A DNA stretch of 24,351 bases from a virus. This document shows, piece after piece, positions 4,944-21,561 of the stretch. The notes under the pieces are model-generated. The model was not told the DNA's origin. It made no database searches and worked only from the letters and a program-made list of their open reading frames with translations. Both the position numbers and the translations under genes were made by a program. The first letter of the stretch is position 1. Each line of letters begins with the position of its first letter. The DNA lies in the UHGV virus genome UHGV-0125333; one strand, given 5' to 3'.

Positions 4944-5614
4944 TGCTCCCCAAATACAAAACCAATTTCAGCCAGTGCCTCGTCCATTTTTTCGATGAAC
5001 TCCGGCACCATCTCGTCAAAACTCGCCATGTACTTTTCATTCCGCTCAATCACGACATAATGCAGGCCTTCACGCTTCATGCGCGGGTCATAGTTGGCAA
5101 AGTATCAGGCATCTTTTCGCGTCACCCACATGCTGTACTGCACCTGGGCCATGTAAGCCGATTTTATTGCCTCGAAACCACCGAGCCGGAATTTCATGAA
5201 ATCCCGGGAGGTAAACGGGCATTTCAGTTCAAGGCCGTTGCCGTCACTGCATAAACCATCGGGAGAGCAGGCGGTGCGCATATTTTCGTCGCGATAGATG
5301 ATCGGGGATTCAGTAATATTCACGCCGGAAGTGAATTCAAACAGGGTTCTGGCGTCGTTCTCGTACTGTTTTCCCCAGGCCAGCGCCTTAGCATTAACTT
5401 CCGGAGCCACACCGGTGCAAACCTCAGCCAGCAGGGTGTGGAAGTAGGACATTTTCATGTCAGGCCACTTCTTTCCTGAGCGGGGCTTTGCTATCACGTT
5501 GTGAACTTCTGAAGCGGTGATGACGCCGAGCCGTAATTTGTGCCATGCATCATCCCCCTGTTCGACAGCTCTCACGTCGATCCCGGTACGCTGCAGGATA
5601 ATGTCCGGTGTCAT
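4934..5614 (-). pseudogene. exo: Lambda exonuclease (Red-alpha) interrupted by a single in-frame TGA at codon 170
   Basis: The N-terminal 169 codons (5108..5614) match lambda Exo and end RKDA-TGA (5105..5107). The same frame continues without further stops for 56 codons ([20 protein letters not shown] ... GFVFGEQWR) to the normal stop at 4934..4936. Lambda has TGG (Trp) at this codon. Confidence 0.8.
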
Positions 5615-6916: not shown

Positions 6917-7049
6917 TTTTTGGGACTCCTGGCTGATTAAGTATGTCGATAAGGCGTTTCCATCCGTCACGTAATTTACGGGTGATTCGTTCAAGTAAAG
7001 ATTCGGAAGGGCAGCCAGCAACAGGCCACCCTGCAATGGCATATTGCAT
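6885..7049 (-). CDS. cIII: CIII, FtsH inhibitor that stabilises CII
   Basis: Hand translation of the minus strand from the ATG at 7049 gives [54 protein letters not shown] then stop. It is below the 60-aa cutoff of the ORF track. Confidence 0.85.
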   Translation of the reverse strand: MQYAIAGWPVAGCPSESLLERITRKLRDGWKRLIDILNQPGVPKNGSNTYGYPD

Positions 7050-7121
7050 GGTGTGCTCCTTATTTATACATAACGAAAAACGCCTCGAGTGAAGCGTTAT
7101 TGGTATGCGGTAACGCCGCGC

Positions 7122-15090: not shown

Positions 15091-15227
15091 TGTTTGAGTT
15101 TAATATGGCAGAACTTCTTCGCCACCGCTGGGGGCGTCTGCGCTTATATCGTTTCCCCGGTTCTGTTTTGACCGATTACCGAATACTGAAGAATTACGCC
15201 AAAACACTGACAGGAGCAGGAGTATGA
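15087..15227 (+). CDS. ylcG: YlcG-like 46-aa protein
   Basis: Hand translation gives [46 protein letters not shown] then stop, overlapping the rusA stop; matches DLP12 YlcG as recalled. Confidence 0.7.
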
Positions 15228-15312
15228 AGTCAGAGATAACAATCAACTAATACTGTTTTGTTGATTTTTGCTTGTAATTGGCGTTCTGGTCTGAGTTTTG
15301 TGGAGTAAGTTG

Positions 15313-15690
15313 ATGCGTGATATTCAGATGGTTCTTGAGCGTTGGGGAGCGTGGGCGGCTAATAATCATGAAGATGTGACCTGGTCGTCCATTGCCGCCG
15401 GTTTTAAGGGATTAATTCCTTCAAAAGTAAAATCTCGCCCACAATGTTGTGACGATGACGCGATGATCATTTGCGGGTGCATGGCCCGTCTGAAAAAGAA
15501 CAACAGCGATTTGCATGATTTATTGGTGGACTATTATGTCGGCGGCATGACTTTTATGGCGCTTGCACGTAAGCATGGGCGATCTGATTGTTGGGTTGGC
15601 AGGATGCTTCAGAAAGCTGAGGGCGTAGTGGAGGGTATGCTGATGGTGTTGGATCTCCGATTGGAGATGGATGCTGATTGTTCGAAATAA
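15313..15690 (+). CDS. Late-gene antiterminator Q, phage-82/QuuD type
   Basis: From the ATG at 15313: [62 protein letters not shown]..., matching the QuuD/Q82 family as recalled. Confidence 0.85.
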
Positions 15691-15694
15691 TTAA

Positions 15695-15789
15695 AGGAAA
15701 AGTTGCTGTCTGATTGTCATTAGTCTAACATTTTAAATGTTGGAATCGCAACGTAGTTATTATCATATAACAGCTTGTTTCCTGATTTA
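15695..15789 (+). promoter_or_regulatory. Candidate late promoter pR' and qut site
   Basis: Placed only from position immediately downstream of Q and upstream of a terminator; no promoter elements confidently identified. Confidence 0.35.
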
Positions 15790-15817
15790 GCCAGCCTCCC
15801 CAAAGGCTGGTCTTTTT
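15790..15817 (+). terminator. tR'-like intrinsic terminator downstream of Q
   Basis: GCCAGCC-TCCCCAAA-GGCTGG hairpin followed by TCTTTTTCT on the plus strand. Confidence 0.55.
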
Positions 15818-15845
15818 CTAATAAGTATTATTTCGGGTAGGGATT

Positions 15846-16370
15846 TTATTGTTTAACCCATAATAATTCATTGACATTGAATCCCAACTTTTGAGCGGTT
15901 CGCACATAGTCTGCTTTTACTTTATCTGGAATAGTTGGGGTCCTTGCCAGAATCCATAGGTATTCTCTGTTCGGACCACTGACAAGAGCATACTTATACT
16001 CATCATCCAGTTTGATTACATTATAGCCACCATAGAAGGGGCCAAAAAACGAAACCTTCAATGCTGCAGTTTTAGTATCTCCAGTAAAGTATGCTTTACC
16101 TTCGCTCTCGCTCCATTTATTTTTCGTTGGATCGTATCCACGGTTAAGTACACGAATCCCTCCGTCGTTCCGTTTTCCATAAGTAGCGCTGACCTGTTCC
16201 AGACCACGTTCGAACCGGTTCTCGAGGCGAGCTATTTCATACCATTTTCCGAGGTAGCGGTTGGCGTCAAAATTTGTAATCGGCTGCACACCTTTAGGTG
16301 GTGTCGGGGCCTTACATGCTATAAGAGTGAAAGAGAGTGCAATGCCAGTCAACACAGGCCATAACTTCAT
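15846..16370 (-). CDS. Bacterial lipocalin (Blc-like) outer-membrane lipoprotein
   Basis: 174-aa ORF with signal peptide and lipobox (FTLIAC) and lipocalin motifs (NFDANRYLGKWYEIARLENRFERG ... KVSFFGPFYGGYNVI) paralleling E. coli Blc; a paralogue, not blc itself. Confidence 0.85.
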   Translation of the reverse strand: MKLWPVLTGIALSFTLIACKAPTPPKGVQPITNFDANRYLGKWYEIARLENRFERGLEQVSATYGKRNDGGIRVLNRGYDPTKNKWSESEGKAYFTGDTKTAALKVSFFGPFYGGYNVIKLDDEYKYALVSGPNREYLWILARTPTIPDKVKADYVRTAQKLGFNVNELLWVKQ

Positions 16371-16562
16371 AATAAATCCTGTACTTTTGATAGTTGAGAG
16401 TAAGTATGAAAGATAGATGATTACGACCGATCACTTAAAGAACTTTCATACTATATTAGGAATAGTCCATAACAGAAAAATTGTCAGTGATGACGCCAGA
16501 AAGGCAATTTATTCCGTGCACTACACAGTTTATGTGTTAATGAATTAGTCAAGGGGGAGAAT

Positions 16563-17522
16563 ATGATAAAAAAACCTGTGATTGGAATCAGCGGTTGTTT
16601 GGCCGGTTCTGCTGTTCGTTTTGATGGTGGTCACAAAAGAGCTGACTTTTTAATGGACAAATTAGTGGAATGGGTAACATTCAGACCAGTATGTCCGGAA
16701 ATGGCTATAGGGCTGCCAGTTCCGCGTCCTGCTCTACGTCTTGTGCGCTCGATGCAAGGAAATATACGGATGTGTTTCAGCCACGACCAGAATGAGGATG
16801 TGACAGAGAGAATGACAGAGTTTAGTCGTTCTTATATGGACAAATTAAAGGATGTATCGGGGTTTGTGGTTTGTGCTAAATCTCCCAGCTGTGGCATGGA
16901 GCGCGTGCGTGTCTATGATGAAAATGGTAATCGAGGTCGTAAAGATGGAGTGGGACTATTTACGAGCACTTTGATGGAAAAGTTTTCCTGGCTACCGGTT
17001 GAAGAGGATGGGCGATTACATGATCCAGTGCTTCGTGAGAATTTTGTTGAAAGAGTTTTTGCTTTGCATGAGCTCAATCACCTTTACAAGGAGAAATTAT
17101 CAAGAAGAGAGTTATTAGCTTTTCATAGTCGTTATAAGCTTCAGTTGTTGGCGCATAGTCAGGCAGGCTATAAAGATATGGGACCATTTGTGGCTGCAAT
17201 ACACGAGTGGGCGGACCTTGAATCATACTTTGAGGTGTATCGTGATAAGCTGATGGCGATTCTCAGAAAACCTGCATCACGTAAAAATCACACGAATGTG
17301 TTGATGCATATACAGGGGTATTTTAGTAACTACTTAAGTACACGCCAGCGTAAAGAGTTGAGCGAGGTTATACTTAACTATCGTTCTGGCACATTACCTC
17401 TTCTTGCGCCGTTGACTCTGCTGAAGCATTATCTGGGTGAGTATCCTAATGATTACTTGCTTACACAGAATTACTTCGATCCCTATCCGGACGAACTGGC
17501 TCTAAGACTGACGGTAAATTAA
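16563..17522 (+). CDS. DUF523-DUF1722 fusion protein (TudS-like Cys-rich N-terminal domain plus YbgA-like C-terminal domain)
   Basis: 319-aa ORF with strong RBS (AAGGGGGAGAAT). N-terminus MIKKPVIGISGCLAGSAVRFDGGHKR with further conserved Cys (PVCPEM, SPSCGMERV) as in the DUF523 family. Assigned from recall. Confidence 0.75.
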   Translation: MIKKPVIGISGCLAGSAVRFDGGHKRADFLMDKLVEWVTFRPVCPEMAIGLPVPRPALRLVRSMQGNIRMCFSHDQNEDVTERMTEFSRSYMDKLKDVSGFVVCAKSPSCGMERVRVYDENGNRGRKDGVGLFTSTLMEKFSWLPVEEDGRLHDPVLRENFVERVFALHELNHLYKEKLSRRELLAFHSRYKLQLLAHSQAGYKDMGPFVAAIHEWADLESYFEVYRDKLMAILRKPASRKNHTNVLMHIQGYFSNYLSTRQRKELSEVILNYRSGTLPLLAPLTLLKHYLGEYPNDYLLTQNYFDPYPDELALRLTVN

Positions 17523-17873
17523 TTGTATGCGATATCATCCAAAAGGATGAGTTCCTGCATGCAGGATATTTACAATCGTAAAAACTACACTATGATACCC
17601 AGAGTGTCAGTTTGTATAAAAACTCTGTTTACTCTGAAGAAACAATTGAGATGCAACTTAAAGTTGGTAAACATGCCAGTCAAAATATATAATATTATGA
17701 TTCCACGCAGCTATATATAATATAACAGATTGGTTTAATAATTTGTCTTTGTGAGTTAAATACATAATTTTATACTTGTGATGCAATGAAATTTTCCTTA
17801 TTGTTGAACTGGCGAATATTGATTTTCCACCTATACTTACCTGGTGTAACCCCAATGATATCAGGTGGATAAT

Positions 17874-18605
17874 ATGCCATACATATGTTCTATCATTTTG
17901 GTGTTGAACTCGTTTGATGTCCGAATTGGTAAAGAAGATATTTTGTTTAAAAAAGGAAGTGCTGTTCTCATTGATTACAATTTAAAAGATTTTTTTTCAT
18001 CAAATATAGATCATGTAATGATCGTAGATGTTGAAGAGAAAACAGTTAATGATTTCTTTAAAAGCAACACACTCTCACCTTTTTCTGTAAGAAGGTTTTA
18101 TCCGGCATACTTGATGGTGGAATGTGAAGATTTTTCATTGTTAAAGAACTTGATTGCATGCTTGAATTGTGATGGCAGAACTGTGGATTTTGTTAGAAAT
18201 CAAATATCACTTGCATGTCTTGCTATCTTATCTTCAGAGAAAATAGTGCAAAGTTTTTTATTTGGATGTCTTAATAGTTTAGGAAGTAAAGTTAAGGCTA
18301 TTATTCACACGGATATATCTGCAGCATGGAGACTTTGTGATATATCTTCAAGACTGTATCTGAGTGAAAGTCTGTTAAAAAGAAAATTAAAGCACGAAGG
18401 CTTATCATTTAGTAAGTTAATTCTTGAAGAGCGAATGGTGATGGCGGAAAGGTTATTAAGCTACAATTTATATTCTGTTGGAAAAGTTGCTGAGATATGC
18501 GGTTATGAAAACACGTCATATTTTGTAAGTGTTTTCAGAAGGTATTTTGGTGTTCCTCCCCATCAATATTCATCAAGATTTTTTTTAGAAAAAGACATGA
18601 TGTAA
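17874..18605 (+). CDS. AraC/XylS-family transcriptional regulator (AppY/EnvY-like)
   Basis: ATG at 17874 (track ORF starts at GTG 17865). C-terminal AraC-type HTH (VGKVAEICGYENTSYFVSVFRRYFGVPPHQY); N-terminus MPYICSIILVLNSF parallels AppY MDYVCSVVFICQSF. AT-rich gene with a long AT-rich upstream region. Confidence 0.85.
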   Translation: MPYICSIILVLNSFDVRIGKEDILFKKGSAVLIDYNLKDFFSSNIDHVMIVDVEEKTVNDFFKSNTLSPFSVRRFYPAYLMVECEDFSLLKNLIACLNCDGRTVDFVRNQISLACLAILSSEKIVQSFLFGCLNSLGSKVKAIIHTDISAAWRLCDISSRLYLSESLLKRKLKHEGLSFSKLILEERMVMAERLLSYNLYSVGKVAEICGYENTSYFVSVFRRYFGVPPHQYSSRFFLEKDMM

Positions 18606-18792
18606 CGTGATGCGTTTTAATGATTTTGTAATTTTCGTATTTGATAATTGTATGATGCTTTCAGCTACGCCAGAATAATCGCGGCGTTTTTCTTTTTGAA
18701 TAGATGTTCAAGCCTTACGCTAATGTAACTTCTATACCTTTCCTCTTCGTTCCGAACCGTGTACACCATCCGTTATTTGCGGAGGTGAGGCT

Positions 18793-19008
18793 ATGAAATC
18801 CATGGATAAGTTAACAACGGGTGTCGCCTATGGCACCTCAGCAGGTAGTGCCGGTTACTGGTTTTTACAGCTGCTCGATAAAGTCACGCCCTCACAGTGG
18901 GCAGCAATAGGTGTGCTGGGTAGCCTGGTATTTGGCCTGCTGACGTACCTGACAAACCTTTATTTCAAGATTAAAGAAGATAAGCGCAAGGCTGCGAGAG
19001 GTGAATAA
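18793..19008 (+). CDS. Class II holin (pinholin), phage-21 S / EssD type, with dual-start motif
   Basis: 71-aa [74 protein letters not shown]. Met1 and Met4 give antiholin/holin starts; strong RBS GGAGGTGAGG. Confidence 0.9.
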
Positions 19009-19505
19009 TGCCTCCATCATTACGAAAAGCCGTTGCTGCTGCTATTGGTGGCGGAGCAATTGCTATAGCATCAGTGTTAATCACTGGCCCAAGTGGTAAC
19101 GATGGTCTGGAAGGTGTCAGCTACATACCATACAAAGATATCGTTGGCGTATGGACTGTATGTCACGGGCATACAGGAAAAGACATCATTCCCGGTAAAA
19201 CGTATACCGAAGCAGAATGCAAAGCCCTCCTGAATAAAGACCTTGCCACGGTAGCCAGACAAATTAACCCGTACATCAAAGTCGATATACCGGAAACAAC
19301 GCGCGGCGCTCTTTACTCGTTCGTCTATAACGTGGGCGCAGGCAATTTCAGAACATCTACTCTTCTTCGCAAAATAAACCAGGGCGATATCAAGGGCGCA
19401 TGTGACCAGCTACGTCGCTGGGCATACGCTGGCGGTAAGCAATGGAAAGGCCTGATGACTCGTCGTGAGATTGAGCGTGAGGTCTGTTTGTGGGGGCAAC
19501 AATGA
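19008..19505 (+). CDS. SAR endolysin (lysozyme, phage-21 R type)
   Basis: 165-aa ORF with an N-terminal Gly/Ala-rich signal-anchor-release segment ([20 protein letters not shown]) and a lysozyme-like body; start overlaps the holin stop (TAATG). Confidence 0.9.
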
Positions 19506-19966
19506 GCAGGGTAACCGCGATTATCTCCGCTCTGGTTATCTGCATCGTCGTCTGCCTGTCATGGGGTGTTAATCATTACCGTGATAACGCCATCGCCTAC
19601 AAAGAACAGCGCGACAAAAATGCCAGAGAACTGAAGCTGGCGAACGCGGCAATTACTGACATGCAGATGCGTCAGCGTGATGTTGCTGCGCTCGATGCAA
19701 AATACACGAAGGAGTTAGCTGATGCGAAAGCTGAAAATGATGTTCTGCGTGATGATGTTGCCGCTGGTCGTCGTCGGTTGCACATCAAAGCAGTCTGTCA
19801 GTCAGTGCGTGAAGCCACCACCGCCTCCGGCGTGGATAATGCAGCCTCCCCCCGACTGGCAGACACCGCTGAACGGGATTATTTCACCCTCCGGGAACGA
19901 CTGGTAATGATGCAGGCCCAACTTGAAGGTGCTCAGCAATACATAACCGAGCAGTGTTTAAAGTAA
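19502..19966 (+). CDS. Rz i-spanin
   Basis: From the ATG at 19502: [60 protein letters not shown]..., matching lambda Rz; overlaps the endolysin stop. Confidence 0.9.
19722..19907 (+). CDS. Rz1 o-spanin lipoprotein, embedded in Rz in the +1 frame
   Basis: ORF with lipobox LPLVVVGC and a proline-rich tail ([25 protein letters not shown]), matching lambda Rz1. Confidence 0.8.
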
Positions 19967-20103
19967 AATCTTAACTACAATATGATTCATTTTGATGATT
20001 GTTTCATAAGGAACAGTGAAGTAAGATCTAAGAGGAGTTAAATTTTATACAGTATAATCATAATATTGCAGCAAGGTGGTTATAATTGAAAGAATATTTA
20101 GAT

Positions 20104-21561
20104 ATGAATACATCTCATGTAAGAGTTGTTACTCATATGTGTGGGTTCCTGGTTTGGCTCTATAGTCTTTCAATGTTGCCACCAATGGTTGTAGCATTGT
20201 TTTATAAAGAAAAAAGCCTGTTCGTTTTCTTTATAACTTTCGTTATATTTTTTTGCATTGGTGGCGGAGCGTGGTATACAACTAAGAAATCTGGCATTCA
20301 ATTACGTACCCGTGATGGGTTTATTATAATTGTAATGTTTTGGATTTTGTTTTCTGTTATTAGTGCATTCCCTTTATGGATTGACTCAGAACTTAATTTA
20401 ACGTTCATTGATGCTCTGTTTGAAGGGGTTTCTGGAATAACAACAACAGGAGCAACTGTAATTGATGATGTTAGTTCATTACCTCGGGCATATTTGTACT
20501 ATCGGTCACAGTTAAATTTTATAGGTGGTTTAGGAGTTATTGTTCTGGCGGTTGCTGTATTGCCATTATTGGGTATTGGTGGTGCAAAGCTTTATCAGTC
20601 AGAAATGCCGGGGCCATTTAAGGATGACAAACTCACTCCCCGCCTGGCCGATACGTCACGGACACTGTGGATAACTTATTCTTTATTAGGTATTGCTTGT
20701 ATTGTCTGTTATAGACTTGCAGGAATGCCTTTGTTTGATGCTATTTGTCACGGGATTTCCACAGTTTCGCTTGGTGGTTTCTCAACTCATAGCGAGAGTA
20801 TCGGATATTTTAATAACTATTTGGTTGAGCTGGTGGCTGGTTCTTTTTCCCTGCTATCGGCTTTCAACTTCACTCTTTGGTATATTGTTATTAGCAGGAA
20901 AACGATAAAACCTTTAATCAGAGATATTGAACTTCGTTTCTTTCTGTTAATAGCCTTAGGGGTGATCATTGTTACCTCTTTCCAGGTCTGGCATATAGGT
21001 ATGTATGACTTGCATGGAAGTTTTATTCATTCGTTTTTTCTTGCCAGCTCCATGCTCACTGATAATGGTTTAGCTACGCAGGATTATGCAAGTTGGCCCA
21101 CGCACACGATAGTGTTTTTGCTGTTGTCAAGTTTCTTTGGGGGATGTATAGGTTCAACTTGTGGTGGAATTAAGTCACTTCGATTTCTTATACTTTTCAA
21201 ACAAAGCAAACACGAGATAAATCAGCTTTCTCATCCCAGAGCGTTGTTGAGTGTAAATGTAGGAGGGAAGATAGTTACAGATCGTGTAATGAGGTCTGTA
21301 TGGAGTTTCTTTTTTCTTTATACTCTCTTCACGGTGTTTTTTATACTGGTGTTAAATGGTATGGGATATGATTTTCTTACATCATTTGCAACAGTGGCTG
21401 CATGTATTAATAATATGGGATTAGGTTTTGGGGCTACTGCATCGTCATTCGGAGTGCTTAATGACATTGCAAAATGTTTAATGTGCATAGCTATGATTCT
21501 TGGTCGCCTTGAAATTTATCCTGTTATTATATTGTTTTCAGGTTTTTTTTGGCGCTCCTAA
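20104..21561 (+). CDS. trkG: TrkG/TrkH-family K+ uptake membrane protein
   Basis: 485 aa from the ATG at 20104 (MNTSHVRVVTHMCGFLVWLYSLSMLPP...), multi-pass membrane protein matching Rac-prophage TrkG as recalled; AT-rich coding sequence. Confidence 0.88.
   Translation: MNTSHVRVVTHMCGFLVWLYSLSMLPPMVVALFYKEKSLFVFFITFVIFFCIGGGAWYTTKKSGIQLRTRDGFIIIVMFWILFSVISAFPLWIDSELNLTFIDALFEGVSGITTTGATVIDDVSSLPRAYLYYRSQLNFIGGLGVIVLAVAVLPLLGIGGAKLYQSEMPGPFKDDKLTPRLADTSRTLWITYSLLGIACIVCYRLAGMPLFDAICHGISTVSLGGFSTHSESIGYFNNYLVELVAGSFSLLSAFNFTLWYIVISRKTIKPLIRDIELRFFLLIALGVIIVTSFQVWHIGMYDLHGSFIHSFFLASSMLTDNGLATQDYASWPTHTIVFLLLSSFFGGCIGSTCGGIKSLRFLILFKQSKHEINQLSHPRALLSVNVGGKIVTDRVMRSVWSFFFLYTLFTVFFILVLNGMGYDFLTSFATVAACINNMGLGFGATASSFGVLNDIAKCLMCIAMILGRLEIYPVIILFSGFFWRS

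Follow-up and report, generated by a model that had tools for sequence, protein, structure and literature searches.

The feature under study is blc, a gene for a Blc-type lipocalin lipoprotein on the minus strand of a 24,351-nucleotide viral DNA (UHGV virus genome UHGV-0125333), which we call the window. Its open reading frame has an ATG start and 174 codons, with boundaries at exactly 15846..16370 (-), and the 174-aa product is identical to RefSeq WP_000780581.1, which carries the label 'lipocalin family protein'. A Shine-Dalgarno sequence, AGGA (16377..16380, -), is found 7 nt 5' of the ATG and is invariant in the four alleles that we compared (window, phage 1H12, the Qin prophage of E. coli B, and strain PKF11). 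Rfam and tRNA scans returned no feature near blc.

The window is a lambdoid prophage adjoining ybhC, on the ybhC side of the lambda attachment site. Its genes follow the order int, exo-bet-gam, N, repressor region, O, P, ren, nin region, rusA and ylcG; sieB is also encoded in the window. The antiterminator Q gene (15313..15690, +) is of the QuuD/DLP12 type (Pfam Phage_antitermQ PF06530, E = 2.5e-51) and is annotated 'antiterminator Q family protein' (WP_001204777.1) in two matching loci, L001 and L003. Based on the usual lambdoid architecture and on the terminator that comes next, the late promoter pR' and its leader would occupy 15700..15789 (+). Comparison with DLP12 yielded only short shared motifs in this segment, including ATATAACAG (15765-15773), which is also found downstream of quuD, and the position of pR' is therefore one that we infer. 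An intrinsic, tR'-like terminator follows at 15790..15821 (+), consisting of an 8-bp stem (GCCAGCCT/AGGCTGGT) and then CTTTTTCT. This hairpin, 100 nt after Q and 35 nt past the blc stop codon, is the sole terminator-like site within 15200-19100. A scan of the same interval found no canonical terminator on the blc strand, and the hairpin read on the minus strand has no U-run.

Beyond blc, all of the late-side genes are on the plus strand. A gene fusing TudS (DUF523, 2-thiouracil desulfurase family) to DUF1722, also known as 'YbgA family', lies at 16563..17522 (+), is recognised by Pfam matches and encodes 319 aa. It is followed by a gene for an AraC/YdeO-like regulator (17874..18605, +; Pfam HTH_18 and HTH_AraC). 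The lysis cassette (18793..19966, +), placed by the coordinates of the L001 and L003 annotations, comprises the holin gene essD (18793-19008), the endolysin gene rrrD (19008-19505) and an Rz-like gene to 19966; trkG (about 20104-21561, +) and the terminase genes (+) lie downstream. The preliminary description of this DNA had called the lipocalin prophage-borne and oriented against late transcription. Both statements agree with this map, in which blc (-) sits between Q and the lysis genes, all of them on the plus strand.

A blastn comparison with DLP12 of E. coli K-12 delimits a slot for variable cargo (15673..18781) that separates Q from the holin gene. Homology to DLP12, at approximately 95% nucleotide identity through the Q region, ends at 15672, 18 nt short of the end of Q, and restarts at 18782, 11 nt before the holin gene, with 94% identity across the lysis cassette. 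The GC content is 40-44% here, versus 48-53% in the flanks. In DLP12 the same slot holds nmpC, likewise opposite the late strand. Phage records with a related Q match the window beyond that gene only where they carry blc (12 records), and in the others the match stops inside Q; lambdoid phages and prophages with a related Q and without blc thus exist. The first late genes, those of the lysis cassette, can be reached only by transcription through the slot. Given the minus-strand orientation of blc, late transcripts that start just after Q, at the inferred pR', would cross it in the antisense direction. Judged by its position and base composition, blc is a phage moron.

The third cargo gene of the slot has a history of its own. 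The AraC-like regulator gene is AT-rich (GC 30-33%), and it is only 82% identical in 1H12-type phages, versus 97% for blc, which marks it as acquired separately from blc. Its product matches the NCBIfam YdeO model, but below the cut-off of that model. A relationship to PsrA, PsrB and PatE is only a lead.

We read the features of a bacterial lipoprotein precursor directly from the translation of blc. The N-terminus, MKLWPVLTGIALSFTLIAC, has a positive n-region, then a hydrophobic core, and then the lipobox L-I-A-C. The predicted signal peptide comprises residues 1-18, with the lipobox LIAC encoded at 16325-16314 and the Cys19 codon at 16316-16314 (-). The predicted cleavage site separates MKLWPVLTGIALSFTLIA from C19-K20, and LIAC aligns with VVAC of E. 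coli Blc. The residue at +2 after Cys19 is Lys, and the Asp that acts as an inner-membrane retention signal is thus absent.

The remainder of the protein is a lipocalin closely related to Blc. It matches Pfam PF08212 (Lipocalin_2) with E = 7.2e-44, and it scores 316.1 bits against the NCBIfam Blc model (PRK10477 / NF007786, 'outer membrane lipoprotein Blc'), whose curated cut-off is 267 bits, in a match spanning residues 1-174 of a 176-position profile. The best matches among solved structures are those of E. coli Blc (3MBT, 1QWD and 2ACO; E about 1e-68, ungapped, with E = 3.5e-69 at 63% identity). Alignment with K-12 Blc is gap-free, with 104 of 174 residues identical in the precursor (60%) and 98 of 155 in the mature part (63%), and the G-x-W lipocalin motif is present as G41-K-W43. 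By every sequence-level criterion of membership, the phage protein is a member of the Blc family. Hence the preliminary description was right to see a lipobox-containing, Blc-like lipocalin with clear but diverged similarity to the chromosomal protein, and the alignment to Blc that it proposed gave the identities above; its parallel suggestion of YodA-type lipocalins found no counterpart, as the product has no YodA/ZinT-type Pfam match.

The ligand cavity is far more conserved than the protein as a whole. Bozhanova et al. tabulated 19 residues of Blc within 4 Å of haem, and vaccenic acid binds in the same cavity (PMC8177097). Eighteen of these 19 residues are the same in the phage protein, and the 19th is a K77R substitution. 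With this conservation despite 60% overall identity, the ligands of the phage lipocalin are very probably hydrophobic molecules of the kind that Blc binds.

We asked where the gene came from. The nearest relatives of the phage protein, at 71-82% identity, come from Enterobacter, Leclercia, Huaxiibacter, Buttiauxella, Cedecea, Scandinavium, Kosakonia, Raoultella and Pantoea; the closest of these lipocalins reach 74-82%, compared with 60% for E. coli Blc. A distance tree resolves two clades: (i) the phage protein together with the Enterobacter-type lipocalins; and (ii) Blc of E. coli, Salmonella, Citrobacter and Atlantibacter. Buttiauxella izardii has one lipocalin of each lineage, 79% and 61% identical to the phage protein. 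The separate Enterobacter-type clade and the co-occurrence of both lineages in B. izardii rule out a diverged duplicate of E. coli blc. On this phylogenetic evidence, phage blc is a xenologue that derives from a second lineage of Blc, present in other Enterobacterales. The term 'paralogue' in the preliminary description needs this correction, as the gene is not a diverged copy of E. coli blc.

The neighbouring TudS-DUF1722 gene shares this origin. Its closest homologues (69-73% identity) lie 0.9-1.5 kb from a lipocalin gene, in divergent orientation, in 10 genomes and one metagenome contig. Between the two genes is a MerR-family regulator with MlrA-type domains, sometimes accompanied by a transthyretin/HIUase-like gene. 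The arrangement differs in Cedecea and Scandinavium, where the regulator is the first gene of an operon that also comprises SnoaL-like, short-chain dehydrogenase, amine-oxidase, DUF1365, cyclopropane-fatty-acid-synthase-like and DUF2878 genes. The set of lipocalin, MerR, (transthyretin-like) and TudS/DUF1722 genes is also present on an E. coli plasmid beside three integrase genes, and the locus is thus mobile in its own right. Second-lineage loci (Enterobacter, Leclercia, Cedecea, Scandinavium, Buttiauxella) thus have the same 319-aa TudS-DUF1722 neighbour as the phage, and a colinear region upstream of the lipocalin gene. They differ in that the chromosomal gene is divergent from a MerR/MlrA-like regulator, whereas neither this regulator nor the transthyretin-like gene has been retained in the phage, and in that the phage locus has a lower GC content. 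This conserved linkage indicates that blc and the TudS-DUF1722 gene were captured together, from a locus that also held the MerR/MlrA-like regulator now absent in the phage. At the DNA level, the Enterobacter-type loci are 65-74% similar to the phage locus, almost entirely within coding sequence; the similarity ends at both start codons, and no direct donor was found for this reason. The DNA-level search for a donor and for a merR remnant found neither, beyond a short promoter relic.

This relic lies upstream of blc, where approximately 100 nt align colinearly, with no gap, to the stretch between merR and blc in 12 chromosomal orthologues. The distance to the ATG, 85 nt, is also the same. In 40 columns the orthologues are at least 90% conserved, and the phage matches 24 of these; no other intergenic register does better, and only 0.1% of 2000 shuffles reach 24. 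The phage upstream sequence, tcatCTATCTTtCATACTTAc, contains two candidate sigma-S-type -10 elements (16401..16416, -): CTATCTT (16416-16410), invariant in the four alleles, and CATACTTA (16408-16401), which varies at its first base. In the ungapped register, CATACTTA aligns with the box CTACACTTA of the 12 orthologues, which we take to fit the sigma-S -10 consensus KCTAYRCTTAA. K-12 blc carries the same box as the orthologues (tcatCTACACTTAg, 30 nt before the ATG), and chromosomal blc is RpoS-dependent and induced at stationary-phase entry (PMC4512719). Further upstream, TATAGTATGAA (16445..16455, -) is identified by the colinear alignment as what remains of TATACTACGAAT, a motif conserved between merR and blc in the ancestral locus. 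The TATATT in its complement may be the old merR -10 element, now facing the TudS-DUF1722 gene. A scan of the 192 bp between blc and the TudS-DUF1722 gene (16371-16562) found no sigma-70 consensus promoter on the minus strand, and the region overall is no richer in such sites than shuffled sequence. Footprinting across the four phage alleles discriminates little, as they are 94% identical in this region. We therefore regard the sequence upstream of phage blc as a candidate sigma-S-type promoter, with a degenerate box recognised at the level of motifs.

The cassette is widespread in E. coli. A match to the 3-kb cassette is present in 1153 of 5426 complete E. coli genomes, 992 of which hold at least 80% of it, and a segment running from the end of Q through blc to the start of the TudS gene is at least 80% covered in 1028. 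Carriage of blc is thus approximately 19-21% of complete E. coli genomes, laboratory B strains included. Twelve phage records, among them Jouyvirus 1H12, the Lambda_ev series and IdasGreatGrand, encode the lipocalin at 97-99% protein identity; the 1H12 and Lambda records annotate the product as 'Lipocalin Blc', and the gene order in 1H12 is that of the window. Phage blc ranks with the most frequent cargo that lambda-like phages carry in gut E. coli. Mathieu et al. (2020, Nat Commun, PMC6969025) had already listed it among the morons of lambda phages from the infant gut, with more than 50% of 19 phages carrying it.

We compared the four alleles for signs of selection. The dN/dS of blc is 0.06-0.16, with dS up to 0.20, and that of Q in the same alleles is 0.03-0.10. 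The blc alleles are under purifying selection. The gene is also intact in defective prophages whose neighbours are deleted or cut by insertion sequences (L001 and the Qin remnant of E. coli B). In the E. coli B derivative T7 Express, for example, the Qin remnant carries the allele WP_000780584.1 and the adjoining TudS gene is cut by IS3. Truncated copies of blc occur in some genomes (H68, H69), and blc is thus not indispensable.

Evidence for expression comes from a proteomic data set. A 2026 study applied TMT proteomics to carbapenem-resistant E. coli CCUG 70745 and quantified WP_000780581.1, which it lists as 'Blc' (PMC13459554; data set PXD067730). Its abundance rose 1.99-fold and 2.98-fold 15 min after 128 and 192 µg/mL meropenem, respectively, and the authors grouped it with the envelope-stress proteins PspC, Spy, IbpB, YcfJ, YgdI, YgdR, YceB and MliC; the 'outer membrane' location in their table is a prediction (PMC13459554). 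These values describe one clinical strain rather than a defined lysogen, and the rise could reflect extraction effects on membrane proteins 15 min after a lytic antibiotic. We note that the phage lipocalin and chromosomal Blc have no tryptic peptide of at least six residues in common, and peptides unique to WP_000780581.1 relative to chromosomal Blc include VSFFGPFYGGYNVIK and GLEQVSATYGK. The identification should therefore be specific. The listing as 'Blc' shows that omics studies can confuse the phage and chromosomal proteins. In the literature on expression or phenotype of the phage alleles, we found this proteomics record and one genomics mention; searches for WP_000780584, WP_000780585 and YP_009909556 returned no expression or phenotype reports, a 2026 lysogen transcriptome paper makes no mention of phage blc, and no host phenotype of phage blc was found in the literature searched.

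Based on these observations, we propose that blc is a phage moron, cargo that is dispensable for phage growth, encoding a functional Blc-type lipocalin lipoprotein, made in the lysogen from its own stress-responsive promoter, and we assign this reading a probability of roughly 0.75. From general lipoprotein biology, export of the precursor would be followed by lipidation of Cys19 and removal of the signal peptide by signal peptidase II. As the residue at +2 is Lys and not Asp, the mature protein would be expected to reach the periplasmic face of the outer membrane through the Lol system. There its beta-barrel, with a Blc-like cavity, would bind lysophospholipids, fatty acids and possibly haem or another tetrapyrrole. 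Transcription in the lysogen would start at a stress-responsive promoter of blc itself, probably of the sigma-S type, and not at the Q-dependent late promoter; after induction, late transcription would run antisense through blc and interfere with it. Lysogens that enter stationary phase or meet envelope stress would thereby gain an additional supply of envelope lipocalin. The case for transcription from its own promoter, which the preliminary description had also expected, combines the orientation of the gene, the promoter relic and one proteomics study. Support for it is thus indirect: the protein in CCUG 70745 and the degenerate sigma-S-type box speak for it, but a sigma-70 consensus is missing from the intergenic minus strand.

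A stronger version of this proposal treats the blc/TudS-DUF1722 pair as an orphaned remnant of a MerR/MlrA-controlled stress locus of other enterobacteria. Lambdoid phages would have rewired it through loss of the regulator and retention of a sigma-S-type promoter, with the extra lipocalin made under stress measurably raising the envelope-stress tolerance of lysogens. We consider this version rather unlikely. If it were true, the relevant agents would include the beta-lactams, bile, lysophospholipids and haem of gut and clinic, the effect would help to explain why roughly one in five complete E. coli genomes retains the gene, and phage blc would be a widespread phage-borne fitness factor. For either version, E. 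coli already has a chromosomal Blc, and a second copy may add little.

The same redundancy would suit a gene that does nothing. An intact, useless and costless hitch-hiker could persist between essential phage modules, and such a neutral passenger would have no known phenotype, would tolerate the truncated copies seen in H68 and H69, and would resemble the adjoining cargo genes, which are frequently interrupted by insertion sequences. The selection data argue otherwise. A passenger is not expected to show a dN/dS as low as that of Q, to keep 18 of 19 pocket residues at 60% overall identity, or to stay intact in prophage remnants whose neighbours have been deleted or cut, and the identical protein was detected in CCUG 70745. 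We judge a neutral passenger to be unlikely.

Prophage-encoded outer-membrane lipoproteins with exclusion roles are well known, and a role serving the phage itself deserves consideration with that precedent in mind. The lipocalin might block superinfection, as Cor and Llp do, or handle membrane lipids during lysis; the presence of sieB in the window and of an independently acquired Blc near a lipid A acyltransferase in a Morganella phage could be read in its favour. The protein has no sequence relation to Cor or Llp, however, and its conserved cavity favours binding of a small ligand over masking of a receptor. A contribution to lysis is difficult to reconcile with an orientation against late transcription, and lambdoid phages and prophages with a related Q do without blc altogether. 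We hold a phage-serving role to be quite improbable. That the gene is an assembly artefact or a misplaced chromosomal blc, an outcome that the preliminary description had named among the grounds for abandoning its reading, can be given almost no weight. We found no point in its support, and an identity of 60-63% to K-12 Blc marks a protein that is similar but clearly not the product of the chromosomal gene, whose DNA is too diverged from the phage gene for a blastn match in most genomes. The same junctions recur in 12 sequenced phage records and across complete, closed genomes of E. coli, of which more than 1000 have them, and this excludes a chimera with chromosomal blc.

We compared the moron with known systems. 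E. coli Blc (b4149; PDB 1QWD, 2ACO, 3MBT and 6UKL) has the same family and length, aligns without gaps, shares the 18 pocket residues, and has its lipobox Cys at nearly the same position; its sigma-S-type -10 box is about as far from the start codon as the candidate box of the phage gene. It differs in its 60% identity, in belonging to the other clade, and in its chromosomal location beside ampC. Its Cys131 is Ser in the phage protein, and the phage promoter box is degenerate (CTATCTT and CATACTTA versus CTACACTTA). The infant-gut lambda moron (1H12 gp65, 'Lipocalin Blc') is the same gene, with 97.1% protein identity and five residues that differ, and the infant-gut phages have the same Q-blc-YbgA-regulator-holin order as the window. 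The published record of that moron covers its presence and frequency (PMC6969025). Phage blc is therefore already known and annotated, and the preliminary description is a correct reading of an ordinary feature; the present analysis adds, modestly, the origin of the gene in a second Blc lineage, its capture alongside TudS-DUF1722, and the promoter relic.

In phage biology, the closest functional analogues are lc/nmpC of phage PA-2 and DLP12 and bor of lambda, classic lysogenic-conversion genes whose products are outer-membrane proteins. Both lc and bor are expressed from the prophage. The lc/nmpC gene occupies the same Q-to-holin slot on the same strand, after a promoter-plus-terminator segment that follows Q. 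The porin encoded by lc/nmpC and the Bor lipoprotein are unrelated to phage Blc as proteins, and their phenotypes, a new porin and serum resistance, have been demonstrated, whereas the effect of phage Blc is putative. Finally, the Blc of the Morganella phage is 54% identical over the aligned part and is encoded between the lysis genes and terminase, with the lipid A acyltransferase gene approximately 4.6 kb away, upstream of the lysis genes. The independent acquisition of this more distant Blc makes envelope-lipid cargo a recurrent theme.

A TudS-DUF1722 fusion gene ("YbgA family") lies at 16563-17522 on the plus strand of the window, and its 319-aa product joins DUF1722 to a 2-thiouracil desulfurase domain of the TudS type (DUF523). 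The fusion gene is phage cargo. We found a MerR/MlrA-like regulator linking the closest homologues of this gene and of blc, the window's Blc-type lipocalin lipoprotein gene, in one metagenome contig and in the genomes of 10 enterobacteria. This arrangement, which we refer to as the Enterobacter-type locus, also occurs on the 268-kb E. coli plasmid NZ_CP061755.1 (L094, 60-8978), where it adjoins three consecutive integrase-type genes. The plasmid locus comprises genes for a truncated lipocalin, MerR, a uraH-like protein, YbgA, and an AAA ATPase, and the gene order in metagenome contig L007 is identical. The neighboring integrase-type genes, together with the matching order in the contig, suggest an integrative element as the vehicle of this locus. 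Morganella phage IME1369_01 (L090) has independently acquired a Blc homologue (4965-5480), which is 54% identical where the two proteins align. Its gene follows the orientation of the late genes and is flanked by the lysis genes on one side and the small terminase gene on the other. We note that upstream of its lysis genes the Morganella phage also encodes a lipid A lauroyl acyltransferase.

The Q antiterminator genes of the window and of the K-12 prophage DLP12 (L092) are approximately 95% identical. Just downstream of Q, the two have only short motifs in common (window 15673-18781 versus L092 2817-5887). The segment directly after Q belongs to the variable cargo slot, not to the conserved Q module. 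This same segment is where the late promoter that depends on Q should lie, along with its terminator.

The slot also holds an AT-rich AraC-family regulator gene (17865-18605, plus strand; GC 30-33%), which matches the NCBIfam YdeO model below cut-off. It may resemble PsrA, PsrB, and PatE of EHEC, which are prophage-encoded regulators of acid resistance and the T3SS (PMC10877973). The closest relative of the window is a prophage in E. coli 2018-18.25PC (L003), 99.6% identical apart from an insertion in its AraC-like gene. That gene is split by a composite transposon, ISApl1-mcr-1.1-pap2-ISApl1 (L003 21659-27140), which represents a chromosomal colistin-resistance insertion in this same cargo slot.

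Proteins encoded by Q, blc, and the TudS gene on a 2.1-kb contig, JARKOR010000135.1, are 99-100% identical to those of the window. The contig is labelled as a Candidatus Nanosynbacter MAG and binned as a Saccharibacteria genome; it is almost certainly wrongly binned E. coli prophage DNA. The blc product, WP_000780581.1, is named plainly "Blc, outer membrane lipoprotein" in a table of a proteomics paper (PMC13459554, section 18), and the paper does not point out that the accession belongs to the prophage's protein and not to chromosomal Blc.

The potassium-transporter gene trkG (20086-21561, plus strand), also AT-rich (GC 32-42%), occupies a second cargo site, with the Rz gene on one side and the terminase region on the other. 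The Rac prophage of K-12 is a known carrier of trkG. An Rfam match to the Lambda_thermo element, the cIII thermoregulator (7004-7062, minus strand; 88.5 bits), confirms that the cIII leader is of the lambda type.
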